Shown: piece by piece, positions 4,210-62,171 of the stretch
How positions within the stretch are numbered: the stretch's first letter is position 1
How the letters are laid out: every line of letters begins with the position of its first letter
DNA from: an uncultured Bacteriovorax sp.
Lineage (GTDB): Bacteria > Bdellovibrionota > UBA1018
Reading direction: 5' to 3'
DNA length: 64,000 bases
NCBI GenBank assembly: GCA_964508305.1
Contig: CAZDSX010000001.1
Span: forward strand, 43,388-107,387
Made by a program: the position numbers and the translations under genes
Notes under the pieces: generated by a model
Told to the model about the DNA's origin: nothing
Seen by the model: only the letters and a program-made list of their open reading frames with translations
Database searches by the model: none

Positions 4210-4297
4210 GACCTCCGGGTCCGCGCCTTTGACTGGCAGGCCTCCATGAAGGAGGCCTGAGGGGCTCCAGAAAACTGCAATCAGGAGGATTGCACCG

Positions 4298-4810: not shown

Positions 4811-4813
4811 ACC

Positions 4814-6235: not shown

Positions 6236-6255
6236 GTGAAAGTGAGGGGTAGATC

Positions 6256-7230
6256 GTGAGAGTGACTGAGAACATGAACTTCGACTTGTCCCGCGAGACG
6301 CTGTCGAAGTCGCGCTCGCGGATGGGGCAGCTGCAGGAAAAGGCAGCCAGCACCCGCCGCCTCAACGCGCCCTCCGACGACCCCGTGGGCGCATCCAAGG
6401 TGCTGGAGATCAGGACGGACAAAGTGAATGCGGATCAGTTCATCACCAACGCGAAGCTGGCTGAAAACTTCCTGAGCAACTCGGAGGCCGCGCTAGCCGA
6501 GCTTGGAGACATCCTGATCCGTGCCAAGGAAATTGCCATCGGCCAGAGCAGTGGCGCGAGCGCAAACCCCCAGACCCGGATCGCTGTGGCCGAAGAGGTC
6601 ACGCACCTTTACCAGCAGGCGGTGGCGGCGGCGAACCGCCGGATCGGGGATCGCTATCTTTTTGGTGGATACAAGACCACCCAGCCGCCGTTTGACCGCG
6701 ATGGCAACTACCGAGGAGACGACGGCCAGATGATGGTCGAGATCTCTCGTGAAGTGTTCCTTGGGATGAATGTGCCCGGGATCGACGCCTTCAACACCAA
6801 CCCGGCGGCCGCGCGGCAGGCCCTGCAGAGGGATGCGGGAGGGCCTACCGTGTCTGGTCGGGGTCCGGCTTCGACGGCGGCACCGGAGCAGGAAAACGTA
6901 AATCTTTTCGATGAGCTGCAAAGCCTGAGGATCGGCCTCCTTTCTGGGGATCAGTCCTCGATTCAGGGAACCCTGGAGCGCTTTGACGCGCTGCATGCCA
7001 AGGTGACCTCGGTCCGCTCCATGCTGGGCAGTCGGCTTCAGGGGGTATCAGGCGCCTCACAGTCCATGGAGCGACAGATCGTGACCGGCGCTGGCCTGAG
7101 CTCGTCGATCGAAGATGCCGACATGGCGCAAGTGATGAGCGATCTCGCCCGCGAGGAGACGATCTTCAGGGGTGCTTTGGCAAGCTCCCAGAAGCTAATC
7201 CAGCCGACATTATTGGACTTTCTGAAATAA
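6256..7230 (+). CDS. flgL: flagellar hook-associated protein 3 FlgL
   Basis: Flagellin-like N-terminus (RETLSKSRSRMGQLQEKAASTRRLNAPSDDPVGA) and C-terminus (MAQVMSDLAREETIFRGALASSQKLIQPTLLDFL). Confidence 0.85.
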   Translation: MRVTENMNFDLSRETLSKSRSRMGQLQEKAASTRRLNAPSDDPVGASKVLEIRTDKVNADQFITNAKLAENFLSNSEAALAELGDILIRAKEIAIGQSSGASANPQTRIAVAEEVTHLYQQAVAAANRRIGDRYLFGGYKTTQPPFDRDGNYRGDDGQMMVEISREVFLGMNVPGIDAFNTNPAAARQALQRDAGGPTVSGRGPASTAAPEQENVNLFDELQSLRIGLLSGDQSSIQGTLERFDALHAKVTSVRSMLGSRLQGVSGASQSMERQIVTGAGLSSSIEDADMAQVMSDLAREETIFRGALASSQKLIQPTLLDFLK

Positions 7231-7324
7231 CCAGAGGTTGCCAGCCCATCCGGATTGTTCTATACGGGCCTCAGGTAATGGACTGCCGACTGACCCGTCA
7301 GTGCCGTAGGGAGAACATGAAGTT

Positions 7325-7549
7325 ATGCTCGTTTTAACCCGGAAGTTGGGCGAAAGCATCGCCATCGACGACCACATCAAGATCGTCGTTGTTCAGATCA
7401 AGGGCAAGCAGGTGCGACTGGGAATCCAGGCGCCGCGCGAGACCAAGATCCACCGCGAAGAAGTTTATTCGGCCATTCGGGATCAAAACCAGGAGGCGGC
7501 CAAGGCGCCTGCCGCAGTGGTCAACGTCTCCAAGGCCCTAAAAGGCTAG
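7325..7549 (+). CDS. csrA: carbon storage regulator / translational repressor CsrA
   Basis: [48 protein letters not shown] matches the canonical CsrA fold sequence. RBS agggag upstream. Confidence 0.9.
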
Positions 7550-7639
7550 TTGGCAGGCGCAAAAAAGTACGATTCTATTGAGCAACGGCCGGGCAAGTTG
7601 GGCCCGGAGGCATGACTAGGATAGCCAAGGGGGCAGGGC

Positions 7640-8191
7640 ATGATCATTCAGACAGGACGTTTTGGTCAGCTGACGATTTCAAATGAGGATCTGATCCAGA
7701 TCCCGCAGGGGATCATGGGGTTTCCTAACCTCACCCGCTTCTGTCTCGTGGACCCTGCAGATGACACGCTCATTTTATGGCTGCAGTCGCTCGAAGACGC
7801 GCAGATTGCCTTCCCGGTTCTTGAGCCCAAGGTGTTCCGCCCTGAGTACGCCGCAAGACTGTCGGCAGCCGAGCTCCGCGAACTCAAGCTCGAGAACATC
7901 AACCAGTCGACGGTCTTCTCGATCCTCACCATCCCGGCCGATGTGACCCAGATGACGGCGAACCTCAAGGCTCCGCTTGTGATCAACCTCAAGGACCAGA
8001 TTGCGCGCCAGGTGGTTCTCCAGGAAAACGAGTACAGTGTGAAGCACCTGATGTTCAAGGAACTCAAGTCACACCTCGTGACGCTTGCGGCGGTCAACCA
8101 CGCAGCAGCGAGTGCGGACGAAAAGGCGAGTGCGCCGGTTTCGGTTCGCACCCTCACGCCTTCCAACAGCGTTCGTACGCTCCAGGCCTGA
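7640..8191 (+). CDS. fliW: flagellar assembly factor FliW (CsrA antagonist)
   Basis: MIIQTGRFGQLTISNEDLIQIPQGIMGFPNLTRFCLVDPADDT..ILWLQSLED matches the FliW family. Adjacent to csrA. Confidence 0.85.
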   Translation: MIIQTGRFGQLTISNEDLIQIPQGIMGFPNLTRFCLVDPADDTLILWLQSLEDAQIAFPVLEPKVFRPEYAARLSAAELRELKLENINQSTVFSILTIPADVTQMTANLKAPLVINLKDQIARQVVLQENEYSVKHLMFKELKSHLVTLAAVNHAAASADEKASAPVSVRTLTPSNSVRTLQA

Positions 8192-29977: not shown

Positions 29978-30898
29978 TTAGAGGGTTCCTCCGCCAGCCC
30001 GAAGCCCGCAGCGCAGGAGGCTTGCTTCGAGCCTCTTCTGGTTGTCGCTCGAGAGGGCCACGAGGGGAGCGCGAACCGTCGATGTGCAAAGAGCGGTGGA
30101 AGGCGATTCGCCCACGAATGCAAGCGATGCCTTGATGGGAACCGGATTGGACTCGATGAAAAGATCCCGAAAAAGGGGATAGAAGCGCTGGTGGAGCTCG
30201 AACGCCTCCCGGTTTTTTCCCTCTTCAAAAAGACGCTGGATGCGGACCATGGCCCGTGGAAAGAGGTTGCTTGCAACCGAGACCACGCCCACGGCGCCGG
30301 CAGCAAGAAGGGGAAGAAAGGTGGCATCATCGCCAGAGAAGATCTCAAGCGAATGTCCTGCCACCTGGAACTGGTCGATATATTCGGAGGCAAGCCCGAC
30401 GTTGCCCGTGGCTTCCTTGAACCAGCGGATGCGCGGGTGTGCCGCAAGCTTGGCCGCGGTTTCAGGAGGCAGGCTCACGCCCGTTCTTCCCGGGACATTA
30501 TAGAGCATCACGGGACAGCTCACTGAGTCGGCCACCTGGATGAAGTGTGAATAAAGTCCGGCAGCAGAGGGCTTGTTGTAATACGGAGTGACGATCAGGA
30601 CGCCATCCGCCCCGGCCTGTGAGGCCCAGCTCGAGAGCGAAACGGTGTCCGGAGTCGAGTTGCTTCCCGTGCCTGCGATCACTCGCGTGCCGGTGCCCCG
30701 GCAGGTGCGGATGGACTCCGAGATGAGGGTCTTTTTCTCCTCGGTCGAAAGAGTGGGACTCTCTCCCGTGGTCCCGCACGGGATGACGGCTGATACACCG
30801 GCAGCAATCTGGTCCTTGATCAGTCGGTCAAAGGCCGCCAGATCCAGCGATCCGTCGGCGTGGAAGGGGGTCACGAGTGCAGTGATGATGCCTTTCAT
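29978..30898 (-). CDS. dapA: 4-hydroxy-tetrahydrodipicolinate synthase
   Basis: MKGIITALVTPF...GVSAVIPCGTTGESPTLS, YNVPGRTG. Start ATG 30898 overlaps the lysA stop (ATGA). The long upstream extension in the tool ORF is rejected. Confidence 0.9.
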   Translation of the reverse strand: MKGIITALVTPFHADGSLDLAAFDRLIKDQIAAGVSAVIPCGTTGESPTLSTEEKKTLISESIRTCRGTGTRVIAGTGSNSTPDTVSLSSWASQAGADGVLIVTPYYNKPSAAGLYSHFIQVADSVSCPVMLYNVPGRTGVSLPPETAAKLAAHPRIRWFKEATGNVGLASEYIDQFQVAGHSLEIFSGDDATFLPLLAAGAVGVVSVASNLFPRAMVRIQRLFEEGKNREAFELHQRFYPLFRDLFIESNPVPIKASLAFVGESPSTALCTSTVRAPLVALSSDNQKRLEASLLRCGLRAGGGTL

Positions 30899-32196
30899 GG
30901 GCGCTCCCCTCGTAGCAGATCCGAGAGCTGCTCGCGATCCCGGATCACGCGGGCGCGCTTGCCGGAGACCAGGATCTCGGCCGGCCTGGTTCGCGTATTG
31001 TAGTTGCTTGCCATGCTCATCCCATATGCGCCGGCGCTCATGAATGCGACCAGATCCCCCGAACAGAGGCCCGTCGAAAGCGGGCGGTCCGAGCCAAAGC
31101 AGTCTCCGCTCTCGCAAACCGGACCCACGACGTCGGTTGGCTTTTTTCGGCCACGCGACTGGGATTGCTCGACAGGGAGAATGTCGTGGTAGCTGCCGTA
31201 GAGCGCCGGACGCATGAGGTCGTTCATTCCCGCATCCAAGATCAGGAAGTCCTTGCTCGGGCGAGGCTTTCGAAAGAGGACCTGCGAAACGAGGATCCCC
31301 GAGTTGCCGCTCAACACTCGACCCGGCTCAAGCAGGATGCGAAGGCGGTTCTTGAACGGAGAGCTGTTGCCGAAGGCGCGGACCACTTCCCTGCAGTAGT
31401 CGGAGATCCGGGGCGGCTTCTCATCCTTATACTGGATTCCGACGCCTCCACCCAGGTCGGCAAACTCAAGCGGCCTTCCGATGGTCGATTCCACATTGAG
31501 GATCTCGCGGCCCAGCATCGAAAAAGCCTCCTTGAGGGGCTTGAGCGAAGTGAGCTGGCTTCCGATGTGGATGCTCATTCCGCAAAGCTTGACGTTGGGA
31601 AGCGAAGGGAGCAGGGCCACGGCCTCGCGAACCTCCTGGGCATTGAGGCCAAACTTGTTCCGCTTGAGACCCGGGCTGTTCTACGGGTGGGTCTTGGCGT
31701 CGATCTTGGGGTTGAACCGGAGCGCCACTCGCGCCGGAGGGCGTCCGGTGGCCCTGGTCACGGCATCGATCATGATGAGTTCCTGCACGGACTCCACGTG
31801 GAAGGAGGTGATGCCCGGGCGTCGCCCAACATTATAATGAAGGCCCGCACTGATCTCCTCGGGGGTCTTTCCGACGCCTGAAAACACGACGCGATCTCCG
31901 GGGATCCCGGCAATCCTTGCGCGCTCAAGCTCTCCGCCCGATACCAAGTCTGCGCCGGAACCGAGCTTGCCCATCATCTTGACGATGGCGATGTTGGAGT
32001 TTGCCTTGAGCGCGTAGCAAATGGTCAGGTCCCGGATCGACGATAGCCCCGAGGCAAGGGCGCGATACCGGGTTTCGAAAGCCGTGGCGCTGTAGATGTA
32101 AAGCGGCGTCCCGTGCTCGCGGGCCAGTCGGTCCACCGGCATGCCGTCGGCGTGAAGGACGCCCTTGATGTACTTGAACTGAGGATGGTCGCTCAT
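30895..32196 (-). pseudogene. lysA: diaminopimelate decarboxylase lysA interrupted by one in-frame TAG (minus-strand codon 31683..31681) at the conserved Tyr of the HP-Y-ISTG motif; otherwise intact
   Basis: N-terminal part (YALKANSN, ...KIDAKTHP) and C-terminal part (NSPGLKRNKFGLN...EPGR..CESGD.F) are in the same frame, separated only by TAG where homologues have TAY. Confidence 0.6.
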
Positions 32197-49796: not shown

Positions 49797-50129
49797 TCAG
49801 TTTTGTGACTTCCGCCGCAGGATTGGCGCCACGGGCGCCAAGCTTCGAGGCGCGACATCGGCTTGGGTGACGGGAGCGGTGCTCCGCACGGATCGCGGCC
49901 TGTTTTCAGCAGCCTCCGCGGCATCCGGGGTCAGCGGGGCCCGACGCTCTTCGGCCCAGGACTCGCGGTGATTCATCATTGGAACATGGGCATCCCAGCA
50001 GGAAACGGAGCAAAAGCTGAGGCCCGTTCGCTTCCGGTTGCAGGTGGAAACGTTGCAGACCCAATAGACGCCGCCCAGGGCGATGGGCTTCTTGCAGATA
50101 TTGCATTTCTTCCAGGGAGCGAGGCTCAC
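49797..50129 (-). CDS. small Cys-rich (zinc-ribbon-like) hypothetical protein
   Basis: WKKCNICKKPIALGGVYWVCNVSTCNRKRTGLSFCSVSCWDAH. 4-nt overlap with the upstream lipocalin gene. Confidence 0.4.
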   Translation of the reverse strand: MSLAPWKKCNICKKPIALGGVYWVCNVSTCNRKRTGLSFCSVSCWDAHVPMMNHRESWAEERRAPLTPDAAEAAENRPRSVRSTAPVTQADVAPRSLAPVAPILRRKSQN

Positions 50130-50766: not shown

Positions 50767-52335
50767 ATGCGCCTGGCCATCATCGACCTAGGAACGAACT
50801 CAGTCCGCTTTGACGTCCACCAGCTGGGCCCGGGGCGCCAGTCGAGGCTCCTGCACCGCGAGAAGCTCATGGTCAGGCTCGGCCAGGGGGTCTTCCTCGA
50901 CGGGAAGCTGGATGCCGAAGCGCAGCGCCGTACCCTCCATGCATTCGAGAGCTTTTCCCACACCTGCACGGAACTGGGCGTGGACCGGACGGTCGCCTTC
51001 GGAACGAGCGCCCTGCGTGAGGCCTCCGACGGTGGGCGGCTCCTGGAGCAGATCAAGGAGCAGTCCGGAATCGAGGTCCGTGTCATTTCGGGAGCCGAGG
51101 AGGCGCGCTGGATTGCACGCGGGATCCTTGCCCATGAAAGCGGGACGAACGGAAAGTTTGCACTCATTGATATCGGCGGCGGCAGCACGGAGATTTCCAT
51201 CTGTCGTGGGAGCCAGGTGCTGCATTCCGAAAGCTTTCCGCTCGGGACGGCAAGGCTCCAGCAGGTTTTCCTCAAGGCCAGCCCTCCAGCCGCCAAGCCC
51301 GGGGAGCGGGACCCGGTGGATGCACTTCGGGTGTACCTGCGTTCAGTCCTCCTGCCCAAGATGATCGCCGAGGAGTGGCCCAAGGTGGATCGGGTGATTG
51401 GATCCAGCGGTACGATCAAGGCCCTCGAAAAGCTCATCGAAAAAGACAACGGACTTGGCGATGGGCCCAAGAAAAAGAAGAAGGCAAAAAAGTCCAAGGC
51501 AGCAAAGCTCACCCGCGATGCGCTCAAGGACATGGTCGAGGACATGTCCGGGATGAACACGGCCCAGCTGCTGGGCATGCCCGGGATGGAGTCCAAGCGA
51601 GTGGACATGATCCTTGCCGGGGGCGTGCTGTTTGAGGAGTGCCTTCGTGCAGTAGGTGCGAAGCGATTCAGTTTCACCCCATACGCCCTTCGAGATGGAA
51701 TTCTTGAAGAGGAGATGCAGCTTTTCCTTGCCCGAAAGGACTCCCACATCTCCGCCCATCTGGGCGACCTTGAGGCGAGGGCGCGCAAGCTTGGTTGCCA
51801 GGAGGCGCATTTCAAGAAGGTGGCCGATATTGCCAGCTTCCTCTTCGACAAGCTGCGCGGCCTCCACAAGCTGGGCGCCGGCTGGAAGGTTTACCTTACG
51901 GCCGCGGCGATCCTCCATGATACGGGCGAGGCGATCAATCCAAGTCGACATGGTGAGCATGCCTATTACGTCATCCGGAACGCCGATTTTCCATCGCTTG
52001 AGAAGTGGGAAATAGAGTTCCTTGCCCTGCTTGCCCGGTGGCACTCCGGCGGCAAGGTCGATCCAAAGGCCTTGCAGGCACTCAAGGGCCATGTCGATCG
52101 TCGAGTGTTCCTTTCGCTGCTGGCCCTGCTTCGCGTGGCCGACGCCCTGGATCGCGGCCATCGCGGTGGGGTCCTGCTCAAGGATGTTCGCGTGGCTCGC
52201 CAGCAGGTGACCCTGATCCTTGACCCCAGGGGATCGAGCGATCTGGAGATGCTCCGGGTGGAACAAAAGCGGGACCTGTTCGAGGAAACCTTCGGAAGAA
52301 GGCTTGTGGCCGAGCGGGGTCGGCGGCGGCGCTAG
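50767..52335 (+). CDS. ppx: exopolyphosphatase / guanosine pentaphosphate phosphohydrolase (Ppx/GppA) with C-terminal HD domain
   Basis: MRLAIIDLGTNSVRFDV, IDIGGGSTE, ASKHD actin-like fold. C-terminal HD region ILHDTGEAINPSRHGEHAYYVI. Confidence 0.85.
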   Translation: MRLAIIDLGTNSVRFDVHQLGPGRQSRLLHREKLMVRLGQGVFLDGKLDAEAQRRTLHAFESFSHTCTELGVDRTVAFGTSALREASDGGRLLEQIKEQSGIEVRVISGAEEARWIARGILAHESGTNGKFALIDIGGGSTEISICRGSQVLHSESFPLGTARLQQVFLKASPPAAKPGERDPVDALRVYLRSVLLPKMIAEEWPKVDRVIGSSGTIKALEKLIEKDNGLGDGPKKKKKAKKSKAAKLTRDALKDMVEDMSGMNTAQLLGMPGMESKRVDMILAGGVLFEECLRAVGAKRFSFTPYALRDGILEEEMQLFLARKDSHISAHLGDLEARARKLGCQEAHFKKVADIASFLFDKLRGLHKLGAGWKVYLTAAAILHDTGEAINPSRHGEHAYYVIRNADFPSLEKWEIEFLALLARWHSGGKVDPKALQALKGHVDRRVFLSLLALLRVADALDRGHRGGVLLKDVRVARQQVTLILDPRGSSDLEMLRVEQKRDLFEETFGRRLVAERGRRRR

Positions 52336-52826
52336 GGTTTCTGGATCACTTCGATCGAGAGCGGCTCCAGCGGATCATCTGAAGTCGAGGCGCTGCCCGG
52401 GAACTCAAGCCCGACGATGGCACCCTTGGAGATTTCCATCCGCTTTCCGGTGCAGATGCCGACCAAAAGGGGGATCCAGTCCCCGTGCGAGCAGGCGATG
52501 GTCATTTCGGCTTCCGACGCCACCCAGGCTTCGAGCCATTCCAGCACCCGCGTACCCAGTGCGCCCGGGGATTCTCCGTCGCGCTGTTCCTCGAGGCCCG
52601 GATCCACGCGGAGCCTTGCGCCGGTGGCAAGGGCGAGCGGTTCCAGGGTCTCCCGACATCGGACTCGGGGGCTGGTGAGCACCTCCCCCGGCATGGGGAG
52701 GCCTGAGCGGACAAACCAGTCTCGCACACGAAGCGCCTGCTCGCGGCCCTTTTCGGTCAGGCCATTATCCTGCGCTCGGTCGCTCACATCGCGATGGGCG
52801 TGACGTACGAGGTAGAGGCGCCTCAT
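52332..52826 (-). CDS. histidine-phosphatase-superfamily protein, SixA-like phosphohistidine phosphatase
   Basis: LYLVRHAHRD (RHG catalytic motif), GLTEKGREQA, CSHGD. Overlaps the ppk1 stop by 4 nt. Confidence 0.65.
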   Translation of the reverse strand: MRRLYLVRHAHRDVSDRAQDNGLTEKGREQALRVRDWFVRSGLPMPGEVLTSPRVRCRETLEPLALATGARLRVDPGLEEQRDGESPGALGTRVLEWLEAWVASEAEMTIACSHGDWIPLLVGICTGKRMEISKGAIVGLEFPGSASTSDDPLEPLSIEVIQKP

Positions 52827-54901
52827 TCGAGAGGTGTTCCCTTGTAGTGGTTGTGGGCAAGCTCCGCGAAGATAAACTGTGAGCGCACGGCGTTTTTCTG
52901 TGACCTGACGGAGACCTTCTTCCAGGTTCCCTGGGGCGTCAATTCGCGGGCCTTGGTCGTATCCTGGAGGTAGGTGGGGATCAGCACCTCTGTGAGGTAT
53001 CGATACAGCAGTGGGTGGACCACGGGAAAAGCGATCTCCAAGCGCGAGAAAAAATTGCGGGGCATCCAGTCCGCACTGGAGAGGTAAAGGGCCCGACCAT
53101 TCTCGAAGTAGTAAAGTCGCGAGTGTTCCAGGAAGCGATCCACGACGCTGATCACCCGGATGTTTTCGCTCAGTCCCTTGACTCCCGGGACCAGGGAGCA
53201 GGCACCACGGACGATGAGGTCGACACGAACGCCAGCCATGGAGGCATGGTAGAGATTCTCGATCACGGCATCGTCCACCAGCGCATTGACCTTCGCCACG
53301 ATCCTTGCGGGCTTGCCCTCCTTTGCCGCCTGGGTTTCGGCCTTGATGTGGGAGAGCAGGCGTCGATGGAGCTGGGTGGGCGCCGAGACCAGGAGCTTGA
53401 AGCTCGTGGGAATCTGTCCCGTGCTCACTCCGTCAAAGAAAAGCTTGGCATCCTGCCCGATCTCCTGGCTTGCAGTGAGGATGGCAAGGTCCGTGTACTG
53501 GCGGGCCGTTGCGGAGTTGTAGTTGCCGGTCGAAAGGTGAGTGTAATAGCGCACTCCATCGGGCTCGTTGCGCGTGACGAGCGCCACTTTGGCGTGGAGC
53601 TTGAGCTTCCCAAAACCGAAGGCCACTTCAACGCCGGCTGAGCGGAGTTCCTCGGCAAGCCTGAGGTTGTTGAGCTCGTCGAATCTGGCGCGAAGCTCGA
53701 TGGCGACCCGGATCTTCTTGGTGGAGGAGGCTTTCTTGAGTGCCGCCAGCACCGGTGAAACTGCGTCCATGCGGTAGACGGTCAGGTCGATGGCGGCGAC
53801 CAGCGGGTCATCGCAGGAGGCCTGGATCCAGGCAATGAAGCATTCAAAGCCATCATAGGGATGGTGGAGGAGGAAGTCGTGCTTCTGGAGCTCCTCAAAA
53901 ACGCCCTGCTTTTCACGCAGGAAGCCCGGGATGAATGGCTGGATGGGCTTGTGCTTGAGTGAGTGCTTTTCGACAAGCTCCTCTGGGGCCTGGTTGAAAA
54001 GGGTCCAAAGCCCGTGGAGGCAGAGCGTTCCGGGAGCCAGGAAGATTTGCGAGGGCGCCAGCCTGAAGTGCCCGAGGCTCCTCTGCAGGATCTGCTCGGA
54101 GAGGCTTCCGAGATATTGGATCCTCACGACGCGACCGCGGTCTCGGGTGCTGAGGCTTGAGCGGACGACGTCCGGGATGGTCTCGGGGTCTTCTTCGTCA
54201 AGGTCGAGTGAAAAATCTCCGTCACGCGTGAGTCGAACAATGGCAGGTTCGCCTTCGAGACCCAGTGCGGGCCCGAGATGGGTCATGAGGAGGTCGTCCA
54301 GGAAATAAAGCCGTGAGTCACGGAAGAAGACCGAAGGCGTGGATCGCGGAACCTTGAAGAAGATGGAGCTGGGAAAAATCACGCCAAGCTGGAAATTCTC
54401 GAGGGCTGCAAACTTGGCCATCGAGAAGCCTTCGGGAGGCGAGAGGTGGGGGAGCACCAGCTCACGAAAAACCACGGCTCCCGACTCATGGGCGGGCTCG
54501 CCGGGACGTGCCTGGCGGATGATCTGGATGCCCAGGGTCTCGAGCTCACCCGAGAGCATGTCCAGCGCCTCTCCCTGTTTTGCGCCGAACTTTGAAATCG
54601 TTTCGAGGAGCGAGGCCCTGATCCTGGAGAGGTGCCGATGCTGAGTGGCCTCGGCGTCGCGCCTGACCTGGGCTGCGATCGACCGGGTGAGCGAGGCCAG
54701 TCGGATCATGAAAAACTCATCCAAGTTTGATGCTGAGATGGCCAGGAACTTGGCCCGCTCTAAAAGGGGGTTGGTCCCCTGGCGCGCCTCGGCGAGGACG
54801 CGCTCGTTGAACTGCATCCAGCTTAGGTCGCGATGGATCAGGGGGGTTTCCGGAGCTGCCAGCAGCGAGGGCAGCGTGGGGAGGAATCGAACCTGCTGCA
54901 T
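52823..54901 (-). CDS. ppk1: polyphosphate kinase 1
   Basis: N-terminus RDLSWMQFNERVLAEA.....LERAKFLAISASNLDEFFMIR, PLD-like C-terminal domains. 692 aa. Confidence 0.95.
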   Translation of the reverse strand: MQQVRFLPTLPSLLAAPETPLIHRDLSWMQFNERVLAEARQGTNPLLERAKFLAISASNLDEFFMIRLASLTRSIAAQVRRDAEATQHRHLSRIRASLLETISKFGAKQGEALDMLSGELETLGIQIIRQARPGEPAHESGAVVFRELVLPHLSPPEGFSMAKFAALENFQLGVIFPSSIFFKVPRSTPSVFFRDSRLYFLDDLLMTHLGPALGLEGEPAIVRLTRDGDFSLDLDEEDPETIPDVVRSSLSTRDRGRVVRIQYLGSLSEQILQRSLGHFRLAPSQIFLAPGTLCLHGLWTLFNQAPEELVEKHSLKHKPIQPFIPGFLREKQGVFEELQKHDFLLHHPYDGFECFIAWIQASCDDPLVAAIDLTVYRMDAVSPVLAALKKASSTKKIRVAIELRARFDELNNLRLAEELRSAGVEVAFGFGKLKLHAKVALVTRNEPDGVRYYTHLSTGNYNSATARQYTDLAILTASQEIGQDAKLFFDGVSTGQIPTSFKLLVSAPTQLHRRLLSHIKAETQAAKEGKPARIVAKVNALVDDAVIENLYHASMAGVRVDLIVRGACSLVPGVKGLSENIRVISVVDRFLEHSRLYYFENGRALYLSSADWMPRNFFSRLEIAFPVVHPLLYRYLTEVLIPTYLQDTTKARELTPQGTWKKVSVRSQKNAVRSQFIFAELAHNHYKGTPLE

Positions 54902-54907
54902 GGAGGA

Positions 54908-55648
54908 TCAGGTTCCAGCCGCTGGCTTGGGAGGCTTGTAGTAGACTTCCTGGTGGATGGAATCCTTGGCCACGCCCCGCTCGGCAAGCAGGCGCTTGAC
55001 CTCATCGATCATTGCGCCATTTCCGCACAGGAAGTACTGGGTCTGGGTCCAGGGATAATCCGCCCCGAGGGACCGGAGGTAATCCGTCACCCGACCCTTG
55101 AAGCCCTTCCAGTCTCCCTTGGGGCGTGAGACGGCGGTGACAAACTTCATGGAGGGAACGGGAAGCCGCTTGAGCTCCTCCTCGTAGAGCACCTCGTCTT
55201 CATCCCCGACACCGAGCAGGCAGGTGGTGCTTGCGGGCGGCGCAGAGAGGAATGCCTGGGAGAGCATCATGGAGCGGAACGGCGCAATCCCCGTCCCGGT
55301 GGAAATGAAGCAGGCGTGTTGTCCGGGGCCGGCCTCGTAGGTGAAGTCGCCATAAGGGGCAAGTCCGCGGAACGTGTCGCCGGGCCTGAGGCTGTAAAGG
55401 TAGTTGGTGCCCGGTCCACCTGAGACGAGCTTGATGCAAAGCTCGACGGGGTTGGCCTCCGGAGCGGATGCAATGGAGTAGGCCCTGCGGAGGTCACGCC
55501 CATTGGGTCCCGCGCCAGGGATCACACAGCTCACGAACTGGCCCGCCTTGAACTCAAAGCGCGGTTCAGTGGTGAAGCCCAGCTCAAAGACTGTGGGAGT
55601 GAGTTGTTTGAAGCTTTTGACGACGCAACGGTATTCCTGTGCAGCCAT
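54908..55648 (-). CDS. FAD/NAD(P)-binding oxidoreductase (ferredoxin-NADP reductase-like, no FeS domain)
   Basis: RAYSIAS (FAD RxYS motif), GTGIAPFRSM (NAD(P) GTGxAP). 246 aa. Confidence 0.65.
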   Translation of the reverse strand: MAAQEYRCVVKSFKQLTPTVFELGFTTEPRFEFKAGQFVSCVIPGAGPNGRDLRRAYSIASAPEANPVELCIKLVSGGPGTNYLYSLRPGDTFRGLAPYGDFTYEAGPGQHACFISTGTGIAPFRSMMLSQAFLSAPPASTTCLLGVGDEDEVLYEEELKRLPVPSMKFVTAVSRPKGDWKGFKGRVTDYLRSLGADYPWTQTQYFLCGNGAMIDEVKRLLAERGVAKDSIHQEVYYKPPKPAAGT

Positions 55649-55689: not shown

Positions 55690-57321
55690 TTATTGGACAA
55701 TCAGTGTGTTGGCGGGGCTCGGCTGACTTGCGGCGCCCTGCGACAGGGATCGAACGCGCCAAAAATAGGTTCCGACCTCGGGGGTGGGAATCGCGAGGAA
55801 GTTTTCTCGGAGCTTCTTGGTCAGGATGGTCCTTCCAAAGCCCTCGTCGGTAGCCACCTCAAGCTGATAGAACTCGGTAAAGTGGGTCTTTTGCCAGGTG
55901 AAAAGGACGCTGGCCGGAGTCCCGGTTGATGCCGGCTTGGAGGACACCGAGGCGCCATTGGCCGGGAGCACGAGTTGCGGGGGAAGGAAGACGAACTGGA
56001 AGGAGTCGGTCTTTGAGGAGGCCACGAACCCTGATTTCAGGCTGGCAAAGATTCGGTAATAAATCCTGCCGTTGTAAACCTTGTTCTTGTTGAAGGTGTA
56101 CTGCGGCTCGTCGACTACGCGTTCGAGCAAGGGTTTTAGCGCCTGGGGTTCGCGGTAGATCTTTACGGTGTACTGCTTGGCCGCCGCATAGGGCTTCCAT
56201 CTCAGGGTGACCCCGCCGAAGTCCTTGATCAGCTTGTCCTTGATCCGGTTGTCCTGGATCTCGCTGCCGGCAACCAGCGGAGGCAGGGTGTCGATTCCCT
56301 CGAAGTCAGGCCTTAGCCTGAAGCGGGATCGACGAACGGTCTCCTTGACCTCTGGATCATAGAGTTCGATCTCGTAGTCGCCAGGCCGTTTAAGAAGGGC
56401 CGTTGCCTGTGCAACCCCTCCCTGCGCACTGACCTCCTGTTCGAGCACCTCGTCCTTGTCTCCATCGGCTTCGATGAGGCTGAGCCGGAGTTTGAGGCGT
56501 GCCGTGGGGGTTGAGGTCTTCCAGGCGAGCTTGATCTCGCGCTCGGGCAGGGGTGCCTTTGGAGCCAGTGCCAGTACTTCTCCGGCAGAAGGCATGAGAT
56601 CGGATACTCCAACCGGCAGGGCCTTGGCCACGGTGGGTGGAGGCTGTGGAGGTGCCGGGGCGGCAATCGGTACGGCAGGAATGGATGTGTTGCCTCCGCC
56701 CATGGCCAGTGGCACGGCCGAGACCGGGAGGTCGATCTTGGTGGGCACGGCTGGCGCTTCCTCAACGATGGGAGTGGACTTGCTTTCACCAAATGAAGTC
56801 TTTTTTCCGGTTGAAGTCGTGACGACGATCTTCTGGCCCTGTGCCTCACCGCTCACTGCGCCGGCAACCAGCTGAACGTTGGCCTGGCGTGTGATCCCGC
56901 CGAGCGAAAGTCCCGCATCGAAGGCAAGCTTCACCATCGTGCTGGGTCCGAGCTCGATACGTCCACCCTCCTTGAGGGTGATGACCGCCTTGACCTCCGG
57001 GCCCGTCACGATCGTATCCTGGTTGAAGAGCACGGCCCCCTGGTCGATGTTTTGGAACTCTGACTGGCTGGCCTTTTGGCGGCGGATCCGGCCCGAGCTC
57101 GTGGTCAGGACGCCAACCTCGACTGCAGAGCCGCTATCCTGCATTCCAAACACATATTTTCGGATCAGCGGAAAATCCGTCACATACACGTAGAGGGAGG
57201 CAGAGAAGATCCCCGCAAAAAGCACGAGTAGAAAAATCTCCCACAGCTTGAACCGGAAGCCATCGGCTTCGTCCTGTGCGGCAATCGGCTGTGTTTGGGC
57301 GGGTGCAGTGGTCTGGCTCAT
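55690..57321 (-). CDS. membrane-anchored FecR-domain protein with extended beta-rich C-terminal region
   Basis: One TM helix (LWEIFLLVLFAGIFSASLYVYV), then FecR-like segment (GAVLFNQDTIVTGPEVKAVITLKEGGRIELGPSTMVKL). Confidence 0.4.
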   Translation of the reverse strand: MSQTTAPAQTQPIAAQDEADGFRFKLWEIFLLVLFAGIFSASLYVYVTDFPLIRKYVFGMQDSGSAVEVGVLTTSSGRIRRQKASQSEFQNIDQGAVLFNQDTIVTGPEVKAVITLKEGGRIELGPSTMVKLAFDAGLSLGGITRQANVQLVAGAVSGEAQGQKIVVTTSTGKKTSFGESKSTPIVEEAPAVPTKIDLPVSAVPLAMGGGNTSIPAVPIAAPAPPQPPPTVAKALPVGVSDLMPSAGEVLALAPKAPLPEREIKLAWKTSTPTARLKLRLSLIEADGDKDEVLEQEVSAQGGVAQATALLKRPGDYEIELYDPEVKETVRRSRFRLRPDFEGIDTLPPLVAGSEIQDNRIKDKLIKDFGGVTLRWKPYAAAKQYTVKIYREPQALKPLLERVVDEPQYTFNKNKVYNGRIYYRIFASLKSGFVASSKTDSFQFVFLPPQLVLPANGASVSSKPASTGTPASVLFTWQKTHFTEFYQLEVATDEGFGRTILTKKLRENFLAIPTPEVGTYFWRVRSLSQGAASQPSPANTLIVQ

Positions 57322-59198
57322 TTGATCAACGCAACGGCGAGGGTGACGTCATCGTCGAGGTCCTTGCCCTTGTTGTGCTCCAGAAATTCCTTCATTAGAT
57401 TTTCGAGGACATTGCCGGGTCCGCCGCCCACTGACGACTCCACGTTCTTTCGAACGCGTTTTTTTCCGAACATCTCGCCCTCGAGGTTTTTCCCCTCTGT
57501 CAGCCCATCCGTGTACATGAAAAGCAGGTCGCCCGGTGCGACATCGATCGACTTTTCCTGGTAGGGCTCCACATCGCGCGCTTCGCCCACGCGCTGCCCA
57601 TCGGCGGTGAGGCTGTTGAGTTTGTAGGTTCCCGGGGAGGTGACCTTGAAGAGCCAGGGCGGGTTGTGTCCGGCGCTTGCGTAAGTGAGTTTGCGCTCGG
57701 TGAAGTCGATCACGGCGGCAAAAAAAGTCATCATGATCTGGCCTGATGCGGCCTCGTTGACCACGCGGTTGGTGAATGACAGCATCGCACCCGGAGAAAA
57801 GGTGAAGTCCGGATCCTCCTGGGCAAGCTTGTGCATCACGCTGAAACAGCTCCGTGCGGAAGCCGTGATCAGTGCGCTGGGCATGCCGTGGCCGGTGGCG
57901 TCGGCGATGAGCAGGACCATCTTGTCACCCACCTCGAAGAAGCCCCACCAGTCGCCACCGCACTGCGAAGCCGATTGGTAATGGCTCTGGATCAGGATTC
58001 GGTCGGTTTCGTGGCGTTTGGCGGGAAAGAGCGTCTGTTGAACGGTGGAGGCGATGGCGAGCTCATTCTCGAGGTGGACCTTCTTCATGCTCTCTTCGAT
58101 CAGCTCGCTGATCTTCCGAGACATCACATTGAATGAGGCTCCCAGTGCGCCAATCTCATCCTTGGAGCGGGACTTGAGCTCCAGGTCAAACTTCCCGGCC
58201 GCCACCTGCCGGGTGGCCTGGTAAAGGGCAAAGAGCGGCGCAGTGAGCGTCTTCGCGAAGAGCAGGGCAAAAATCACGGCGCCGGTGATGCACATGAGGC
58301 CGAGCAGGATGAATTTCTCGGTCAACGTGTAGGTGGCGCTCATGGCGTTTCGCCAGTCAGTGCGGGAAGTCACGACCAGCTGGAGGTCCGTGCGGAAGAA
58401 GCTCGCCAGGAACTTGGAGCTCGCGTCCTCGAACTCCCCGGCGCCGACAGCTGTCGGACTCTGGATCGCCTTGAGGAAGATGGGATCCTTTGCAAGGTTT
58501 GCCGCCGAAAACAGGACCGTGGAGTCCGAGTCGTGAAGCACGAACCCGTCGCGGTTTGCGATGCTCACGCGGGATCCCTTGATTTCTTTTCCGAACCCCG
58601 CCAGCGAGATGTAGCCGATCGCAACCGGGATGGTGTCAGCCTGGGCGTTGTAGCCAAGGTCGGCGCGGATGATGGCCAGCAGGGGGTTTCGGCCGGCCTT
58701 GGACAGATTGACGAAGTAATAGGAGTCCTTGGTGAGGGCTGGCTGGATGATCTTCCACCAATCAGGGGAGATCTTCATGTCGGCTTCCGTGAACTCTGCG
58801 GCAGCAAGCTTGGACTCGAGCGGAAAGTTCCGGACCGGCTGGTAGGTCCTCTCGGGTCCGGCGAGCTTGCCCACTTCCGTCAAAAGGATGTCGGACTGGT
58901 TGTCGAGCACCGACTGGATTGCACGGGTATCGGCCGCCGAGAGCTCGCGCGCCGGATCGAACGAGGCGAGGATGAGCTGGAGCGTGGAGAGGCCGCGGGC
59001 ACTCAGGTTCACGAACTCACGGCCGGCCAGCACGTTTTCGGTGCCCTGCGACTGATAGGTGTAGGCTCGCTTGTCCTCGGTGAGCATCACGATGGTCGAA
59101 CCAGTGAGGAATCCGATCACCACGAGGAGGAGCGTGACTACGCTCAGCAGCAGCTTGGTCCCCAGCGAGAAGGAGATTCTAAATTGCTGTTGCTCCAT
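57318..59198 (-). CDS. membrane-bound HAMP-domain PP2C/SpoIIE-family serine phosphatase (RsbU-like)
   Basis: Start MEQQQFRIS (RBS aagg). TM + periplasmic sensor region + second TM. HAMP AAGKFDLELKSRSKDEIGALGASFNVMSRKISEL. PP2C region GGDWWGFFEVGDKMVLLIADATGHGMPSALI...MYTDGLTE. Confidence 0.8.
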   Translation of the reverse strand: MEQQQFRISFSLGTKLLLSVVTLLLVVIGFLTGSTIVMLTEDKRAYTYQSQGTENVLAGREFVNLSARGLSTLQLILASFDPARELSAADTRAIQSVLDNQSDILLTEVGKLAGPERTYQPVRNFPLESKLAAAEFTEADMKISPDWWKIIQPALTKDSYYFVNLSKAGRNPLLAIIRADLGYNAQADTIPVAIGYISLAGFGKEIKGSRVSIANRDGFVLHDSDSTVLFSAANLAKDPIFLKAIQSPTAVGAGEFEDASSKFLASFFRTDLQLVVTSRTDWRNAMSATYTLTEKFILLGLMCITGAVIFALLFAKTLTAPLFALYQATRQVAAGKFDLELKSRSKDEIGALGASFNVMSRKISELIEESMKKVHLENELAIASTVQQTLFPAKRHETDRILIQSHYQSASQCGGDWWGFFEVGDKMVLLIADATGHGMPSALITASARSCFSVMHKLAQEDPDFTFSPGAMLSFTNRVVNEAASGQIMMTFFAAVIDFTERKLTYASAGHNPPWLFKVTSPGTYKLNSLTADGQRVGEARDVEPYQEKSIDVAPGDLLFMYTDGLTEGKNLEGEMFGKKRVRKNVESSVGGGPGNVLENLMKEFLEHNKGKDLDDDVTLAVALIK

Positions 59199-59290
59199 CC
59201 TTATATTGTCCCTAAAATTTCGCATAACACAATCCCGGGTTTGCGCCCGGTCCATCATTTTCCGTACGTCAAAATGCCGAGGTAATCACC

Positions 59291-59755
59291 GTGGTCAATG
59301 TCATCAAGGAACAAAAGGGCAACATCGTCTCCGTCAGGATGGTGGGGTCGATTGAAGAAACGGTGGAATTTGAGAACCTGGTCGGCCCGGTGTCCGGTGA
59401 GGTCCATGTCAACTGCAAGGAGATCCCGCGCATCAACTCGGTCGGCGTGAAGGGCTGGATCAAGTATTTCCAGTCTCTTTCGGCCAAGGGCGTGAAGCTT
59501 CGATTCGTCGAGTGTTCGACTGCGATCGTCGAGCAGATCAACCTCATCTCCAACTTCGTGTGCGGCGGCTCTGTCGACTCCATCTACGTTCCGTTTTCCT
59601 GCACGGGCTGCAAGGGTGAGTTCATTGGCCTCTTCAAGACCGAGGACCTAAAGAAGCTCAACTATGCGATCCCCGACCTGAAGTGCGGAAAGTGCGGCGG
59701 CAAGGCCGTGTTTGATGACATCCCCGAGGAGTATTTTGGATTCCTCAACCGTTGA
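59291..59755 (+). CDS. STAS-domain anti-sigma-factor antagonist fused to a C-terminal Cys4 zinc-ribbon
   Basis: GTG start with GAGGT RBS. STAS phospho-Ser motif VNCKEIPRINSVGVKGWIKYFQSL. C-terminal CTGC...CGKC ribbon. Confidence 0.6.
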   Translation: MVNVIKEQKGNIVSVRMVGSIEETVEFENLVGPVSGEVHVNCKEIPRINSVGVKGWIKYFQSLSAKGVKLRFVECSTAIVEQINLISNFVCGGSVDSIYVPFSCTGCKGEFIGLFKTEDLKKLNYAIPDLKCGKCGGKAVFDDIPEEYFGFLNR

Positions 59756-59807
59756 GTTTCATTGAACCCAGCCGGGCGAAGCGATCCCGTAAAGAGGACG
59801 GCCAAGA

Positions 59808-60782
59808 TTGGCTAAAACCTTAGTTCTCATCTCAGAGCAGGCCACTGATGCCCAGTTTGCCTCGCAGGTCGCGACCGAGGCGGGCCTCGCACTTCGCACG
59901 GTCAAGACCGCGCGCGATGGCGTTGGCCTGATCGAGTCGGAGGACGGCTGCGTGGTGATGCTGGATGCTTCAACAGCCGAGCAGTACGCTGCGTTTGAGA
60001 GCGAGGTCCAGGCGCGCATCGGGCTATTCTCATCCAAACTCAACGCCAACCTGATCCACTACCTGAGTTCCAAGGATATTTACGAGGTCCCTTACCTCAT
60101 CCAGAGCCCGCTTTTTGGCAGCTACGTGCACCGGAACTTCCAGCAGGACGCCCGGGTCGGGCACCACTACGGAAGGATCATCAAGGCAACCATCGGCGAC
60201 CGGGCGTTCGGCACGCAGTCGCTCGTTCGTGCGGGCACGAAGATCCAGAATATCAAGCTCCAGAAGACCTCCCAGAAGCAGGATGCCGTGGAGGCGGTGC
60301 GCGGATATCTGCTCGCACTCAAGTTCCAAAGCCGCATGGCCACCGTTGTCGCCAACGCAGTGGACGAGCTCCTGATGAATGCCATGTTCGATGCGCCGGT
60401 CGACCAGATGGGAAGGCATGTTCTCGACAGCACTTCGCGGGCGACCAGCATGATGCTCGATGGCCAGCGTGCCGTTGAACTCCATGTGGCCTATGACGGC
60501 GAATATGTGGCACTCACGGCAGTGGATCTTTTTGGGAGCCTCAACAAGGCAAAGCTCCTGGCCGCCATTTCCAAGATCTACACCGATGAGGAGTACAAGG
60601 TGCGCACTTCGGTGGCTGGTGCCGGCATCGGACTCGCCAGTGTTTTTCACTCAGGTGGAAGCTTCTTCTTTGCAAGCGAGCAGGGCTCGCGGACCGAGGT
60701 TACTGTTTTTTTCCGGCGCTGTGACAGCTATCGTGAGTTCAAGAGCCAGTTTAGGTTCCTCTCGACCCAATTCTATTTCTAG
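59808..60782 (+). CDS. receiver-like N-domain fused to GHKL (RsbW/SpoIIAB-type) serine-kinase/anti-sigma-like domain
   Basis: N-terminal LVLISEQATD...VVMLDAST (REC-like). C-terminal N-box-like ATVVANAVDELLMNAMFDAP and G2-box-like AGAGIGLASVF. Confidence 0.45.
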   Translation: MAKTLVLISEQATDAQFASQVATEAGLALRTVKTARDGVGLIESEDGCVVMLDASTAEQYAAFESEVQARIGLFSSKLNANLIHYLSSKDIYEVPYLIQSPLFGSYVHRNFQQDARVGHHYGRIIKATIGDRAFGTQSLVRAGTKIQNIKLQKTSQKQDAVEAVRGYLLALKFQSRMATVVANAVDELLMNAMFDAPVDQMGRHVLDSTSRATSMMLDGQRAVELHVAYDGEYVALTAVDLFGSLNKAKLLAAISKIYTDEEYKVRTSVAGAGIGLASVFHSGGSFFFASEQGSRTEVTVFFRRCDSYREFKSQFRFLSTQFYF

Positions 60783-60791
60783 GAAGACCCC

Positions 60792-61424
60792 GTGAAGACC
60801 CGCTTTGTCCTCGCCTCGAGTTCACCGCGAAGAATCGAGCTTCTCAGGGGAGCTGGAATCCAGGCCGTTTCGATCTCCCCGGACTGTGATGAGACCCCGG
60901 AGGCGGGTGAGGCGCCGCGGGCGCTTGTTCGGAGGCTGGCGAGGGCCAAGGCGGAGTCGGTTGCAAACAGCCTGTCCCCTCCGGCCGGCGAGCGGGTGCT
61001 GGTGATTGCGGCGGACACCATTGTCGTGGAGCCGGCAAAAAAGCGGATCCTTGGAAAGCCGTCGGGCAGGGGCGAGGCACTTGCCATGCTTTCGCTGATC
61101 TGCGGGCGGACCCATGAGGTACTCACTGGTTACTGCGTGGTTGAGCTTCGCGGGCGGGAGCGCAAGGGAGCCCGCAAGCGTGTGACCGGCGTGGTGAGTA
61201 CCCGGGTCTCGATGCTGTCCCTCACTCGGCGCCAGATGCTTGATTACATTTCAACAGGAGAGCCCATGGACAAGGCCGGAGCCTATGCCGCCCAGGGTCT
61301 CGGGATGAACTTCATCTCTTCCATTCGTGGGAGCTACACCAATGTGGTGGGGCTTCCGATGTCCCAGCTGATGGAAACCCTGTCCAAACAGTTTGGGGCC
61401 AGCCTCCGGATGAAGAATAAATGA
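60792..61424 (+). CDS. maf: Maf-like nucleoside triphosphate pyrophosphatase (septum formation protein)
   Basis: FVLASSSPRRIELL...ADTIVV...ILGKP, MDKAGAYAAQG matches the Maf family. Confidence 0.85.
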   Translation: MKTRFVLASSSPRRIELLRGAGIQAVSISPDCDETPEAGEAPRALVRRLARAKAESVANSLSPPAGERVLVIAADTIVVEPAKKRILGKPSGRGEALAMLSLICGRTHEVLTGYCVVELRGRERKGARKRVTGVVSTRVSMLSLTRRQMLDYISTGEPMDKAGAYAAQGLGMNFISSIRGSYTNVVGLPMSQLMETLSKQFGASLRMKNK

Positions 61425-62071
61425 TCGAGCGCTACCGTGAGATCAGCTCGGCTGTCCTTGCGGGTTCCGCAAGACTGGTTGCTGTCAGCAAGGGCCAGCC
61501 GTTCGAAAAAATAGCCGAGCTTTACCGGGCCGGACAGCGAGACTTCGGCGAAAACTATGTCCAGGAGCTCTCCGAAAAGGCCTCGCTGGCACGAGAGGCG
61601 GGATTCACGGAAATTCGATGGCACTTCCTGGGCCATCTGCAGACCAACAAAGTCAAGCAGCTGCTCCCCCTGGTCTTCATGATCCACTCGGTGGACTCCA
61701 GTCGGCTTGCCGAGGAGATCTCCAGGCGCGCGGTATTGGCCGGAGCGCACTGTCCCGTCCTGATTGAAGTCAATGTTGACGGTGAGGACACCAAGTCAGG
61801 CGTGGAAGCCGGGGAGCTGGGGCAATTTTTGTCGGGTCTTGCGGGTCTTCCCGGAATCGAGGTTCGCGGCCTCATGTGCATCCCTTCGAGGGAGGGGGGC
61901 CTAACGGGTGCCGCATTTCGAAGGCTTCGCGCGCTGCGCGATGAGCACCGATCCCGGCTCGGACCCGGGGAGCTTTCCATGGGAATGAGTGAGGACTACC
62001 CCGTTGCCCTTCGCGAGGGCACGACCTGGGTGCGCGTGGGAACTGCTCTTTTTGGTCCCAGAAATCACTGA
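61421..62071 (+). CDS. yggS: YggS-family PLP homeostasis protein
   Basis: LVAVSKGQP (PLP Lys), IRWHFLGHLQTNKVK, ELSMGMSEDY match YggS/PROSC. Confidence 0.85.
   Translation: MIERYREISSAVLAGSARLVAVSKGQPFEKIAELYRAGQRDFGENYVQELSEKASLAREAGFTEIRWHFLGHLQTNKVKQLLPLVFMIHSVDSSRLAEEISRRAVLAGAHCPVLIEVNVDGEDTKSGVEAGELGQFLSGLAGLPGIEVRGLMCIPSREGGLTGAAFRRLRALRDEHRSRLGPGELSMGMSEDYPVALREGTTWVRVGTALFGPRNH

Positions 62072-62094: not shown

Positions 62095-62171
<77 letters not shown>

Follow-up and report, generated by a model that had tools for sequence, protein, structure and literature searches.

The stretch of DNA analysed here, 64,000 nucleotides from contig CAZDSX010000001.1 of an uncultured Bacteriovorax sp. 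(referred to as the window, in whose positions all coordinates are given), carries at 57318-60782 three adjacent genes which a first-pass annotation had read as a partner-switching module. Open reading frames (ORFs) were recovered at exactly the limits of that annotation, namely 57318-59258 on the minus strand (a phosphatase of 646 amino acids), 59291-59755 on the plus strand (a STAS protein of 154 amino acids, designated STAS-ZnR for its zinc ribbon) and 59808-60782 on the plus strand (a kinase-like protein of 324 amino acids). The locus was compared with 165 related loci in total, drawn from GTDB species-representative genomes (one per species) and from metagenomes. The three ORFs are conserved in relatives and are real genes rather than chance ORFs, since the STAS gene recurs in 80 loci and the kinase gene lies directly downstream of it in 72 of the 75 loci that could be evaluated. 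The module had been placed downstream in a long co-directional string; of the three genes only that of the phosphatase belongs to this tightly packed minus-strand string, as its first and not as a downstream member, and the STAS-ZnR and kinase genes are divergent from it and stand directly upstream of maf and yggS.

The STAS-ZnR gene (59291-59755, plus strand) is predicted to encode a switch protein with a STAS core, a Cys4 zinc ribbon and a C-terminal tail. Taken alone, its sequence scored below the threshold of the Pfam STAS model (E = 0.018; 15.2 against 22.6 bits), and a search of PDB sequences with the protein alone returned nothing usable. The same Pfam model was matched by 33 of 39 orthologues (best E = 1.9e-5), and the family profile matched RsbV of B. 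subtilis (6m36_B, E = 0.014). The segment PRINSVGV of STAS-ZnR was aligned to SYMDSTGL of RsbV, so that Ser50 (codon 59438-59440) falls on the phospho-serine. The AlphaFold2 model (predicted local distance difference test, pLDDT, 88.1) was superposed by Foldseek on SpoIIAA, RsbV and other antagonists with template modelling (TM) scores of 0.64-0.71 and root mean square deviations of 2.2-3.1 Å. In this model the STAS core spans residues 1 to approximately 92, and the ribbon (strands 97-104 and 110-116) replaces the usual last strand and helix. The protein has both the STAS fold and the phosphorylatable serine at the N-terminus of helix 2 that are expected of a partner-switch antagonist.

The ribbon cysteines are arranged as C104xxC107...C132xxC135 (59600-59695) and, together with Ser50, were found to be invariant in the 39 orthologues. 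The same five residues are kept in 41 diverse members of the family, the most distant scoring E = 2e-16; the spacing of the second cysteine pair varies slightly. An acidic-aromatic C-terminal tail is also conserved, with the sequence FDDIPEEYFGFL at 59711-59746 and the consensus FDDxPEEYFxFL. The first-pass description of a STAS protein extended by a Cys4 ribbon was upheld on these grounds, as was its remark that the fusion is unusual, no paper describing a fusion of STAS and zinc ribbon having been found in the literature searched. Two further cysteines, Cys75 (59513-59515) and Cys91 (59561-59563), are invariant in the close clade only and not in distant members; a second metal or redox site at these positions is a possibility, and a redox link of STAS-ZnR is conceivable given the conserved flavoprotein neighbour described below.

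The kinase-like protein (59808-60782, plus strand) was identified from its predicted structure and from its relatives. In its AlphaFold2 model (pLDDT 87.7, predicted TM score 0.87), residues 4-129 form a (βα)5 domain and residues from approximately 145 to 324 an α/β sandwich; the sole disordered stretch (260-272) lies at the position expected of the ATP lid. The best Foldseek match was LvrC of Leptospira (9qih, E = 2.4e-7, 323 aligned columns), followed by LvrB; further matches were to SpoIIAB (TM 0.68-0.74, target-normalised), pyruvate dehydrogenase kinases, SiaB and UsfX. Three boxes of the Bergerat domain were located on the plus strand: the N box AVDELLMNAMFDAP (60357-60398), the G1 box AVDLFGSL (60519-60542) and the G2 box AGAGIGLA (60615-60638). 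Among 79 diverse members of the family, Asp186 and Glu187 of the N box were each present in 78 and Asn191 in 77, Asp240 and Gly243 of the G1 box in all 79, and Gly273 and Gly275 of the G2 box in 75 and 78, respectively. The boxes are in register with those of SpoIIAB/RsbW (hhalign, E = 0.0086), and among the same 79 relatives HATPase_c_2 was matched in 14 and HATPase_c in 12, all weakly (best approximately 3e-5). Because of the model, the Foldseek matches, the conserved boxes and these weak HATPase matches, the protein was accepted as an RsbW/SpoIIAB-type Bergerat domain preceded by a receiver-like domain, an identity that holds at the level of fold and motifs.

Other assignments were considered and rejected. 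Weak matches to Mab-21 nucleotidyltransferase were obtained for 22 of 43 close members (best 0.0049, below cut-off), and the fold search gave a Bergerat fold and not a nucleotidyltransferase. The close-family profile (A1) found only a dehydrogenase among PDB sequences, a chance match, while the diverse profile (A3) found de novo designed Rossmann-like proteins for the N-terminal domain and, weakly, VanS for the C-terminal domain. In hhalign, A1 gave no useful signal when set against a single CheY or SpoIIAB sequence; informative comparisons required the diverse alignment A3 together with small template alignments.

The N-terminal domain (residues 1-130) has the (βα)5 fold of a receiver, and hhalign against five canonical receivers (E = 2.7e-4, probability 42%) placed Asp53 (codon 59964-59966), at the acceptor position that closes strand 3, on Asp57 of CheY and Ser87 on Thr87. 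Asp53 is present in 100% of the close clade and in 72% of the family as a whole. The positions of the CheY pair Asp12-Asp13 are occupied by Ser9 (92%) and a variable residue, that of Lys109 by Arg (86%), and the Response_reg model found no match among the 43 close members scanned at E ≤ 1 or the 79 diverse ones scanned at E ≤ 0.01. With the acidic pair and the lysine replaced, and Response_reg unmatched, the domain is a degenerate, possibly pseudo-, receiver. The earlier assignment of a receiver and a GHKL kinase accordingly stood for the GHKL half, by fold, motifs and relatives, and for the receiver half only as a degenerate domain that has neither the canonical residues nor a Response_reg match. 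These same data bear on the proposal that Asp53 is phosphorylated by an unlinked histidine kinase, as LvrC is by LvrB, in which case the module would integrate a two-component signal with that of the PP2C enzyme. The fold, the placing of Asp53 and Ser87 and the constancy of Asp53 in the close clade speak for it; the replaced acidic pair and lysine, the missing Response_reg matches, the loss of Asp53 in 28% of the family and the absence of a linked histidine kinase, none having been found among the conserved neighbours, speak against it and make it unlikely.

The family to which this protein belongs is large. An exhaustive profile search returned 2255 cluster representatives (50% identity) at E ≤ 1e-3, most of them of 310-330 amino acids and matched over their full length; neither Pfam nor NCBIfam has a model for a family of this size. 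A homologue search with profile A3 returned the same close relatives again, and a cluster look-up of 10 distant relatives gave a single organism name, a Bdellovibrionales bacterium. Four longer members (P0379, P0380, P0274 and P0259) have no Pfam domain in their extensions; in two of them, P0379 (606 amino acids) and P0380 (554 amino acids), the N-terminal extension of approximately 230-285 amino acids resembles a second receiver-like domain by eye. Paralogous copies occur in varied settings: three in tandem beside a 619-amino-acid PilZ protein (L083, 5114-8316), one after a sigma-54 activator without any receiver domain (L151, 6640-8711) and one after a Lon protease (L153, 2021-5557). The neighbours of such copies are mixed (M16 peptidase, MreB, MetH, Usp, Lon, sigma-54 activator) and indicate no single output.

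The remaining gene of the three was described earlier as an RsbU-like phosphatase with periplasmic sensor and HAMP domains, and this was borne out by Pfam matches to HAMP (residues 333-384, 4.8e-11; 58107-58262) and SpoIIE/PP2C (residues 445-643, 6.6e-38; 57330-57926) and by two hydrophobic segments (approximately 33-60 and 311-335) which bracket an extracytoplasmic stretch of approximately 250 amino acids. No Pfam match was found for this periplasmic domain. The PP2C metal-binding motifs GGDWW, DATGHG, YTDG and DDDVT are invariant in 46 orthologues, and the enzyme is for this reason predicted to be catalytically intact and active. The nearest NCBIfam model was SiaA (a partial match, 6.8e-24, 84 bits against a cut-off of 700), and the nearest PDB sequences were Rv1364c, RssB, SiaA (6k4e) and SpoIIE. 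SiaA of P. aeruginosa is a membrane HAMP-PP2C protein of identical layout, so that the domain arrangement is not atypical as had been supposed. The longest ORF, to 59258, over-extends by 20 codons: alignment of orthologous intergenic DNA places the conserved start at the ATG at 59198 (MEQQQF..., 626 amino acids), in agreement with the 624-633 amino acids of the called orthologues. The true start is therefore probably 59198, and the gene is taken as 57318-59198 on the minus strand, encoding a first transmembrane segment, the extracytoplasmic domain, a second transmembrane segment, HAMP and PP2C/SpoIIE.

Next to the phosphatase gene on the minus strand lies a gene (55690-57321) for a FecR-like single-pass membrane protein; its start and the stop of the phosphatase gene share 4 nt. 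Approximately 23 cytoplasmic residues, too few for an anti-sigma domain, precede one transmembrane segment (approximately 24-50), a FecR domain, a proline-rich linker and a beta-rich C-terminus of approximately 300 amino acids. The Pfam FecR match was weak (0.0023; 18.8 bits against a cut-off of 24), as it was in an orthologue; the C-terminus had no Pfam match and the protein no relative among PDB sequences. Upstream of STAS-ZnR in 60 loci from GTDB genomes, the PP2C and FecR-like genes were both present in 42 and both missing in 15, the FecR-like gene alone was present in 3 and the PP2C gene alone in none. The pair is also retained in four rearranged loci (L157, L165, L144 and L148). The FecR-like protein is likely to be a fourth component of the module, gained, lost and moved with the phosphatase, and likely to act as its co-sensor.

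A control region of 92 bp (59199-59290, no strand assigned) separates the two divergent units. It holds a conserved 14-nt motif, ATTGTCCCTAAAAT, at 59205-59218, with the pattern ATT[GT]TCNCTAA[AC]AT; the conserved element upstream of STAS-ZnR may also be written ATTGTCNCTAAAAT. The window has a single copy of the motif, against 0.08 expected by chance, and so has each of 48 related loci; 47 of the latter copies stand 40-100 nt upstream of the STAS-ZnR start, also in loci without an adjacent PP2C gene. The motif contains TAAAAT, a -10-like hexamer, and is enclosed by a CATTGT-N19-ACAATG inverted repeat in close orthologues. A GAGGT Shine-Dalgarno sequence precedes the GTG start of STAS-ZnR by 7 nt. 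A scan of 52.0-62.4 kb for sigma-70-type promoters found nothing. From its conservation and position, the motif region is probably the promoter or operator of the unit formed by STAS-ZnR, kinase, maf and yggS.

The 80 STAS-ZnR loci were found by a scan of GTDB species representatives (tblastn, E down to 1e-85), a few genomes contributing two. They come from metagenome-assembled genomes labelled Bdellovibrionota, Oligoflexia, Bacteriovoracaceae or similar, bar a few evident mislabels, and include UBA1018, CAIRTR01, JAMPXJ01 and the magnetotactic FG-1 and FG-2; these named genomes are placed in the class UBA1018, proposed as 'Bdellonasia' in a 2026 paper (PMC13200544). The distribution suggests that the module is a lineage-specific variant, in a form conserved within an uncultured class of Bdellovibrionota. 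Among evaluable loci, Maf was encoded downstream of STAS-ZnR in 63 of 66 and YggS in 61 of 66. In metagenome loci whose kinase is only 26-50% identical, STAS-ZnR still precedes the kinase in most, and the placement of maf and yggS is kept at kinase identities of 30-40% (L125, L130 and L148). Median identity to the window protein was 69% for STAS-ZnR, the best-conserved gene of the locus, 59% for the flavoprotein, 56% for the kinase, 50% for Maf and for YggS, 48.5% for PP2C and 32% for the FecR-like protein.

The genes recur in other orders and orientations: STAS(-) FecR(-) PP2C(+) kinase(+) in L157, STAS(+) kinase(+) FecR(-) PP2C(+) in L165, STAS(+) PP2C(+) in L079 and STAS(+) kinase(+) PP2C(-) in L084. 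The phosphatases of the first three are complete and of the HAMP-SpoIIE type, and that of L084 is cut by the contig end. Because the four genes recur in this way, their linkage is taken to be functional rather than merely historical, and such re-association in independent gene orders is the strongest evidence that the four proteins, the FecR-like one included, work together. Second copies of STAS-ZnR were observed in four genomes (L044, L054, L072 and L079, in the genomes of L029, L030, L037 and L009, respectively); in L044 and L054 a kinase gene lies upstream of the second copy, and the pair stands in a conserved, Usp-containing neighbourhood.

Partner-switching was found to be the best reading of the locus, as first proposed: the STAS serine is invariant and aligned to the phospho-serine of RsbV, the ATP boxes are near-invariant and the PP2C motifs invariant. 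A SpoIIE-family PP2C, a Bergerat kinase (at the level of fold and motif) and genetic linkage (PP2C adjacent in 42 of 60 loci) are present, as expected of such a switch; a co-encoded sigma factor was found neither in the window nor in the 165 loci. It is probable that the genes encode a four-protein partner-switching phospho-module specific to Bdellovibrionota. Its input arm, on the minus strand and translationally coupled, would consist of the FecR-like envelope protein and the phosphatase with its periplasmic, HAMP and PP2C domains, and its switch arm, on the plus strand directly upstream of maf and yggS, of STAS-ZnR and the kinase with its degenerate receiver and Bergerat domain. By analogy with SpoIIAA/AB and RsbV/W, the kinase would phosphorylate Ser50 of STAS-ZnR with ATP; an envelope signal, perceived by the FecR-like partner jointly with the periplasmic domain and relayed by HAMP, would cause PP2C to remove the phosphate; and unphosphorylated STAS-ZnR would bind the kinase and, by its ribbon and tail, another partner. 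The phosphorylation state would in this manner set which partner STAS-ZnR binds.

Several points weigh against this reading. The residue preceding Ser50 is Asn and not the usual Asp. The 324-amino-acid protein itself matched nothing in Pfam, NCBIfam or PDB sequences. Taken literally, this is the outcome that the first-pass annotation had named as refuting, and the GHKL and receiver-like folds stand only through structure prediction and family-level evidence. The alignment behind its model was shallow, with 43 sequences of 56-87% identity, and its receiver-like domain is without the canonical acidic pair and lysine. Approximately 25% of loci have no adjacent PP2C gene, and the missing nearby sigma gene leaves room for a distal sigma factor, which may exist. 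Ser50 phosphorylation, zinc binding and all protein contacts, like every phosphorylation and binding step of the scheme, are what we infer from the observed genes, folds, motifs and genetic linkage. The weakness of the HATPase matches (best approximately 3e-5), the Asn before Ser50 and the quarter of loci without PP2C would also suit a non-catalytic arrangement, in which the 324-amino-acid protein is an ATP-binding scaffold or pseudokinase, STAS-ZnR works independently of phosphorylation (like MlaB, RsbS or nucleotide-binding STAS proteins) and the PP2C enzyme has other substrates. This is very improbable, given that Ser50 is invariant across the whole family, that the catalytic Glu187, the Mg-binding Asn191, Asp240 of the G1 box and the G2 glycines are 95-100% conserved, and that the HAMP-PP2C protein re-associates with the STAS-kinase pair in several independent gene orders.

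The partner-switching module proposed here resembles known systems in part. The SpoIIE-SpoIIAA-SpoIIAB and RsbU-RsbV-RsbW switches of Bacillus have the same triad: a PP2C phosphatase, a Bergerat serine kinase and a STAS protein whose helix 2 begins with the phospho-serine. Compared with them, the present module has no linked sigma factor, the C-terminus of its STAS protein is swapped for a Cys4 ribbon and tail, its kinase has an N-terminal receiver-like domain, its phosphatase, a HAMP sensor in the membrane, has a FecR-like partner, and its genes form two divergent units. In the SiaA-SiaB-SiaC-SiaD system of P. aeruginosa, SiaA has the phosphatase layout seen here (periplasmic domain, HAMP, PP2C), SiaB is structurally matched by the kinase domain, and the output is non-sigma, via a small switch protein. 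The differences are that SiaC is not a zinc-ribbon STAS protein, that no diguanylate cyclase gene lies beside the module in the Pfam-annotated part of the window, and that the FecR-like partner and receiver-like domain are absent from Sia.

Receiver and RsbW-like kinase are also combined in the partner switches HsbR-HsbA(-HsbD/FlgM) of Pseudomonas, SypE-SypA of Vibrio fischeri and CrsR-CrsA of Shewanella, and in the Hsb and Syp systems the STAS protein is itself the output, binding non-sigma targets. SypE/SypA also feature in PMC10120452. In the Hsb, Syp and Crs systems one cytoplasmic protein unites a canonical receiver with PP2C and kinase. The present module has its PP2C enzyme apart, as a sensor in the membrane; its receiver is degenerate, and a zinc ribbon forms part of its STAS protein. 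A receiver and an RsbW-like Bergerat domain make up LvrC of Leptospira interrogans (PDB 9qih), an anti-sigma-like response regulator whose receiver is canonical and phosphorylated on Asp53 by LvrB (PMC13269768). The domain order is the same in the 324-amino-acid protein; the differences are that the receiver here is degenerate and no kinase is linked, that sequence similarity to LvrC is undetectable, and that no adjacent STAS or PP2C gene is described for LvrC. The module appears to be a known kind of switch, set apart from described systems by the zinc-ribbon STAS protein, the unmodelled kinase family and the apparent FecR-like co-sensor. For two of its protein families there is no curated model.

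The absence of a nearby sigma factor gene, stated in the first-pass annotation, was checked with RpoE, SigF and FliA as queries, which detected each other as a positive control. No sigma-70-family gene was found in the window (phmmer, E ≤ 10), and nothing meaningful was found among the 2044 ORFs of the 165 loci. This bears on the possibility that the 324-amino-acid protein is an LvrC-type, receiver-regulated anti-sigma factor for a distal sigma factor, with STAS-ZnR as its antagonist and the ribbon replacing the lost STAS C-terminus. In its favour, the best structural match is LvrC, a proposed anti-sigma factor (PMC13269768) whose sigma partner is likewise unlinked, and SpoIIAB and UsfX were also matched. 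The possibility is nevertheless a doubtful one: none of the 165 loci has a sigma-70-family gene within 8-10 kb, the receiver is without the canonical phosphorylation residues and no histidine kinase is linked, and it is the STAS protein, not the kinase, that is most constrained and bears the conserved extra domain and tail.

A non-sigma output, which the first-pass annotation had suggested, is plausible. Because STAS-ZnR is the most constrained protein, carries an extra domain and tail and has no linked sigma gene, it is favoured as the output arm, by analogy with SypA, HsbA and SiaC, with a likelihood that we would set somewhat short of even. It might act on RNA polymerase, on nucleic acid or on a factor for division or growth tied to maf and yggS; a link to division or growth control is speculation suggested by the position of these two genes, that is, by synteny. 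A fuller version, in which the ribbon and FDDxPEEYFxFL tail of unphosphorylated STAS-ZnR would bind a conserved non-sigma target and so connect an envelope signal to growth or septation, with the kinases as a large paralogous family feeding such switches, is offered as a tentative and rather unlikely scheme. No GGDEF protein was found in the two parts of the window whose genes were listed one by one (49.8-52.8 kb and 54.9-62.1 kb) or among Pfam-annotated neighbours at orthologous loci; ppk1 and a permease of the window are known from the family census only. In L155 (6982-7401) a STAS-ZnR gene is preceded by that of a small protein in which a PilZ-like motif was recognised by eye, and the PilZ proteins near paralogues (L083 and, probably, L155) give only a hint at a c-di-GMP output. 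In Pseudomonas the HsbA partner switch is known to act on FlgM. A FlgM gene (3880-4209, 8.3e-20) lies 55 kb from the module, in a flagellar cluster at 71-8191 which also encodes a rod protein, FlgI, FlgN, FlgK and FliW, and is uninformative on linkage.

Downstream of the kinase gene on the plus strand, maf (60792-61424; Pfam Maf, 8.1e-57) starts 9 nt after the kinase stop and yggS (61421-62071; Pfam Ala_racemase_N, 7.1e-20) overlaps maf by 4 nt; STAS-ZnR, kinase, maf and yggS are probably co-transcribed as one operon. A tRNA-Arg gene follows yggS at 62095-62171, and an Rfam scan found nothing but this tRNA. The minus-strand string continues beyond the FecR-like gene with a ferredoxin-NADP-reductase-type flavoprotein (54908-55648; Pfam FAD_binding_6 and NAD_binding_1), ppk1 (52823-54901, identified in the family census) and a SixA-like histidine phosphatase (52332-52826). 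The flavoprotein gene was found upstream of STAS-ZnR in 42 of 55 evaluable loci and adjoins it even where the PP2C and FecR-like genes are missing (L011, L050, L053, L062, L066 and L073-L076); its membership in the module is uncertain. Of the context genes named in the first-pass annotation, the FecR-like gene moves with the phosphatase gene, and ppk1 and sixA are not conserved neighbours, being ruled out as module members by their absence from every related locus. A polyphosphate cluster (50767-54901; Ppx/GppA, SixA-like protein and PPK1) follows the minus-strand genes of the module in this genome only.

Two other features of the window were recorded. Two adjacent minus-strand ORFs, 30895-31620 and 31681-32196, lie approximately 60 nt apart and together make up one PLP-dependent decarboxylase of the Orn/Arg/DAP family (probably lysA); the split is due either to an internal stop or frameshift or to an assembly error. 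A cysteine-rich protein of 110 amino acids (CNIC...CNVSTC...CSVSC; 49797-50129, minus strand) without a Pfam match is encoded beside a lipocalin-like lipoprotein and a tRNA-Gln gene.

Should STAS-ZnR have no non-sigma target, the analysis would still provide domain assignments for two families of 'hypothetical proteins'. Partner switches are a general bacterial route from phosphorylation state to a change of binding partner, and each new output widens the range of processes that they are known to control. If the proposed scheme is true, envelope signals would be coupled to growth or septation in predatory Bdellovibrionota, some of whose relatives are magnetotactic, and a non-sigma target of STAS-ZnR, if there is one, would offer a way into the coupling of envelope signals with growth or division in these predators.

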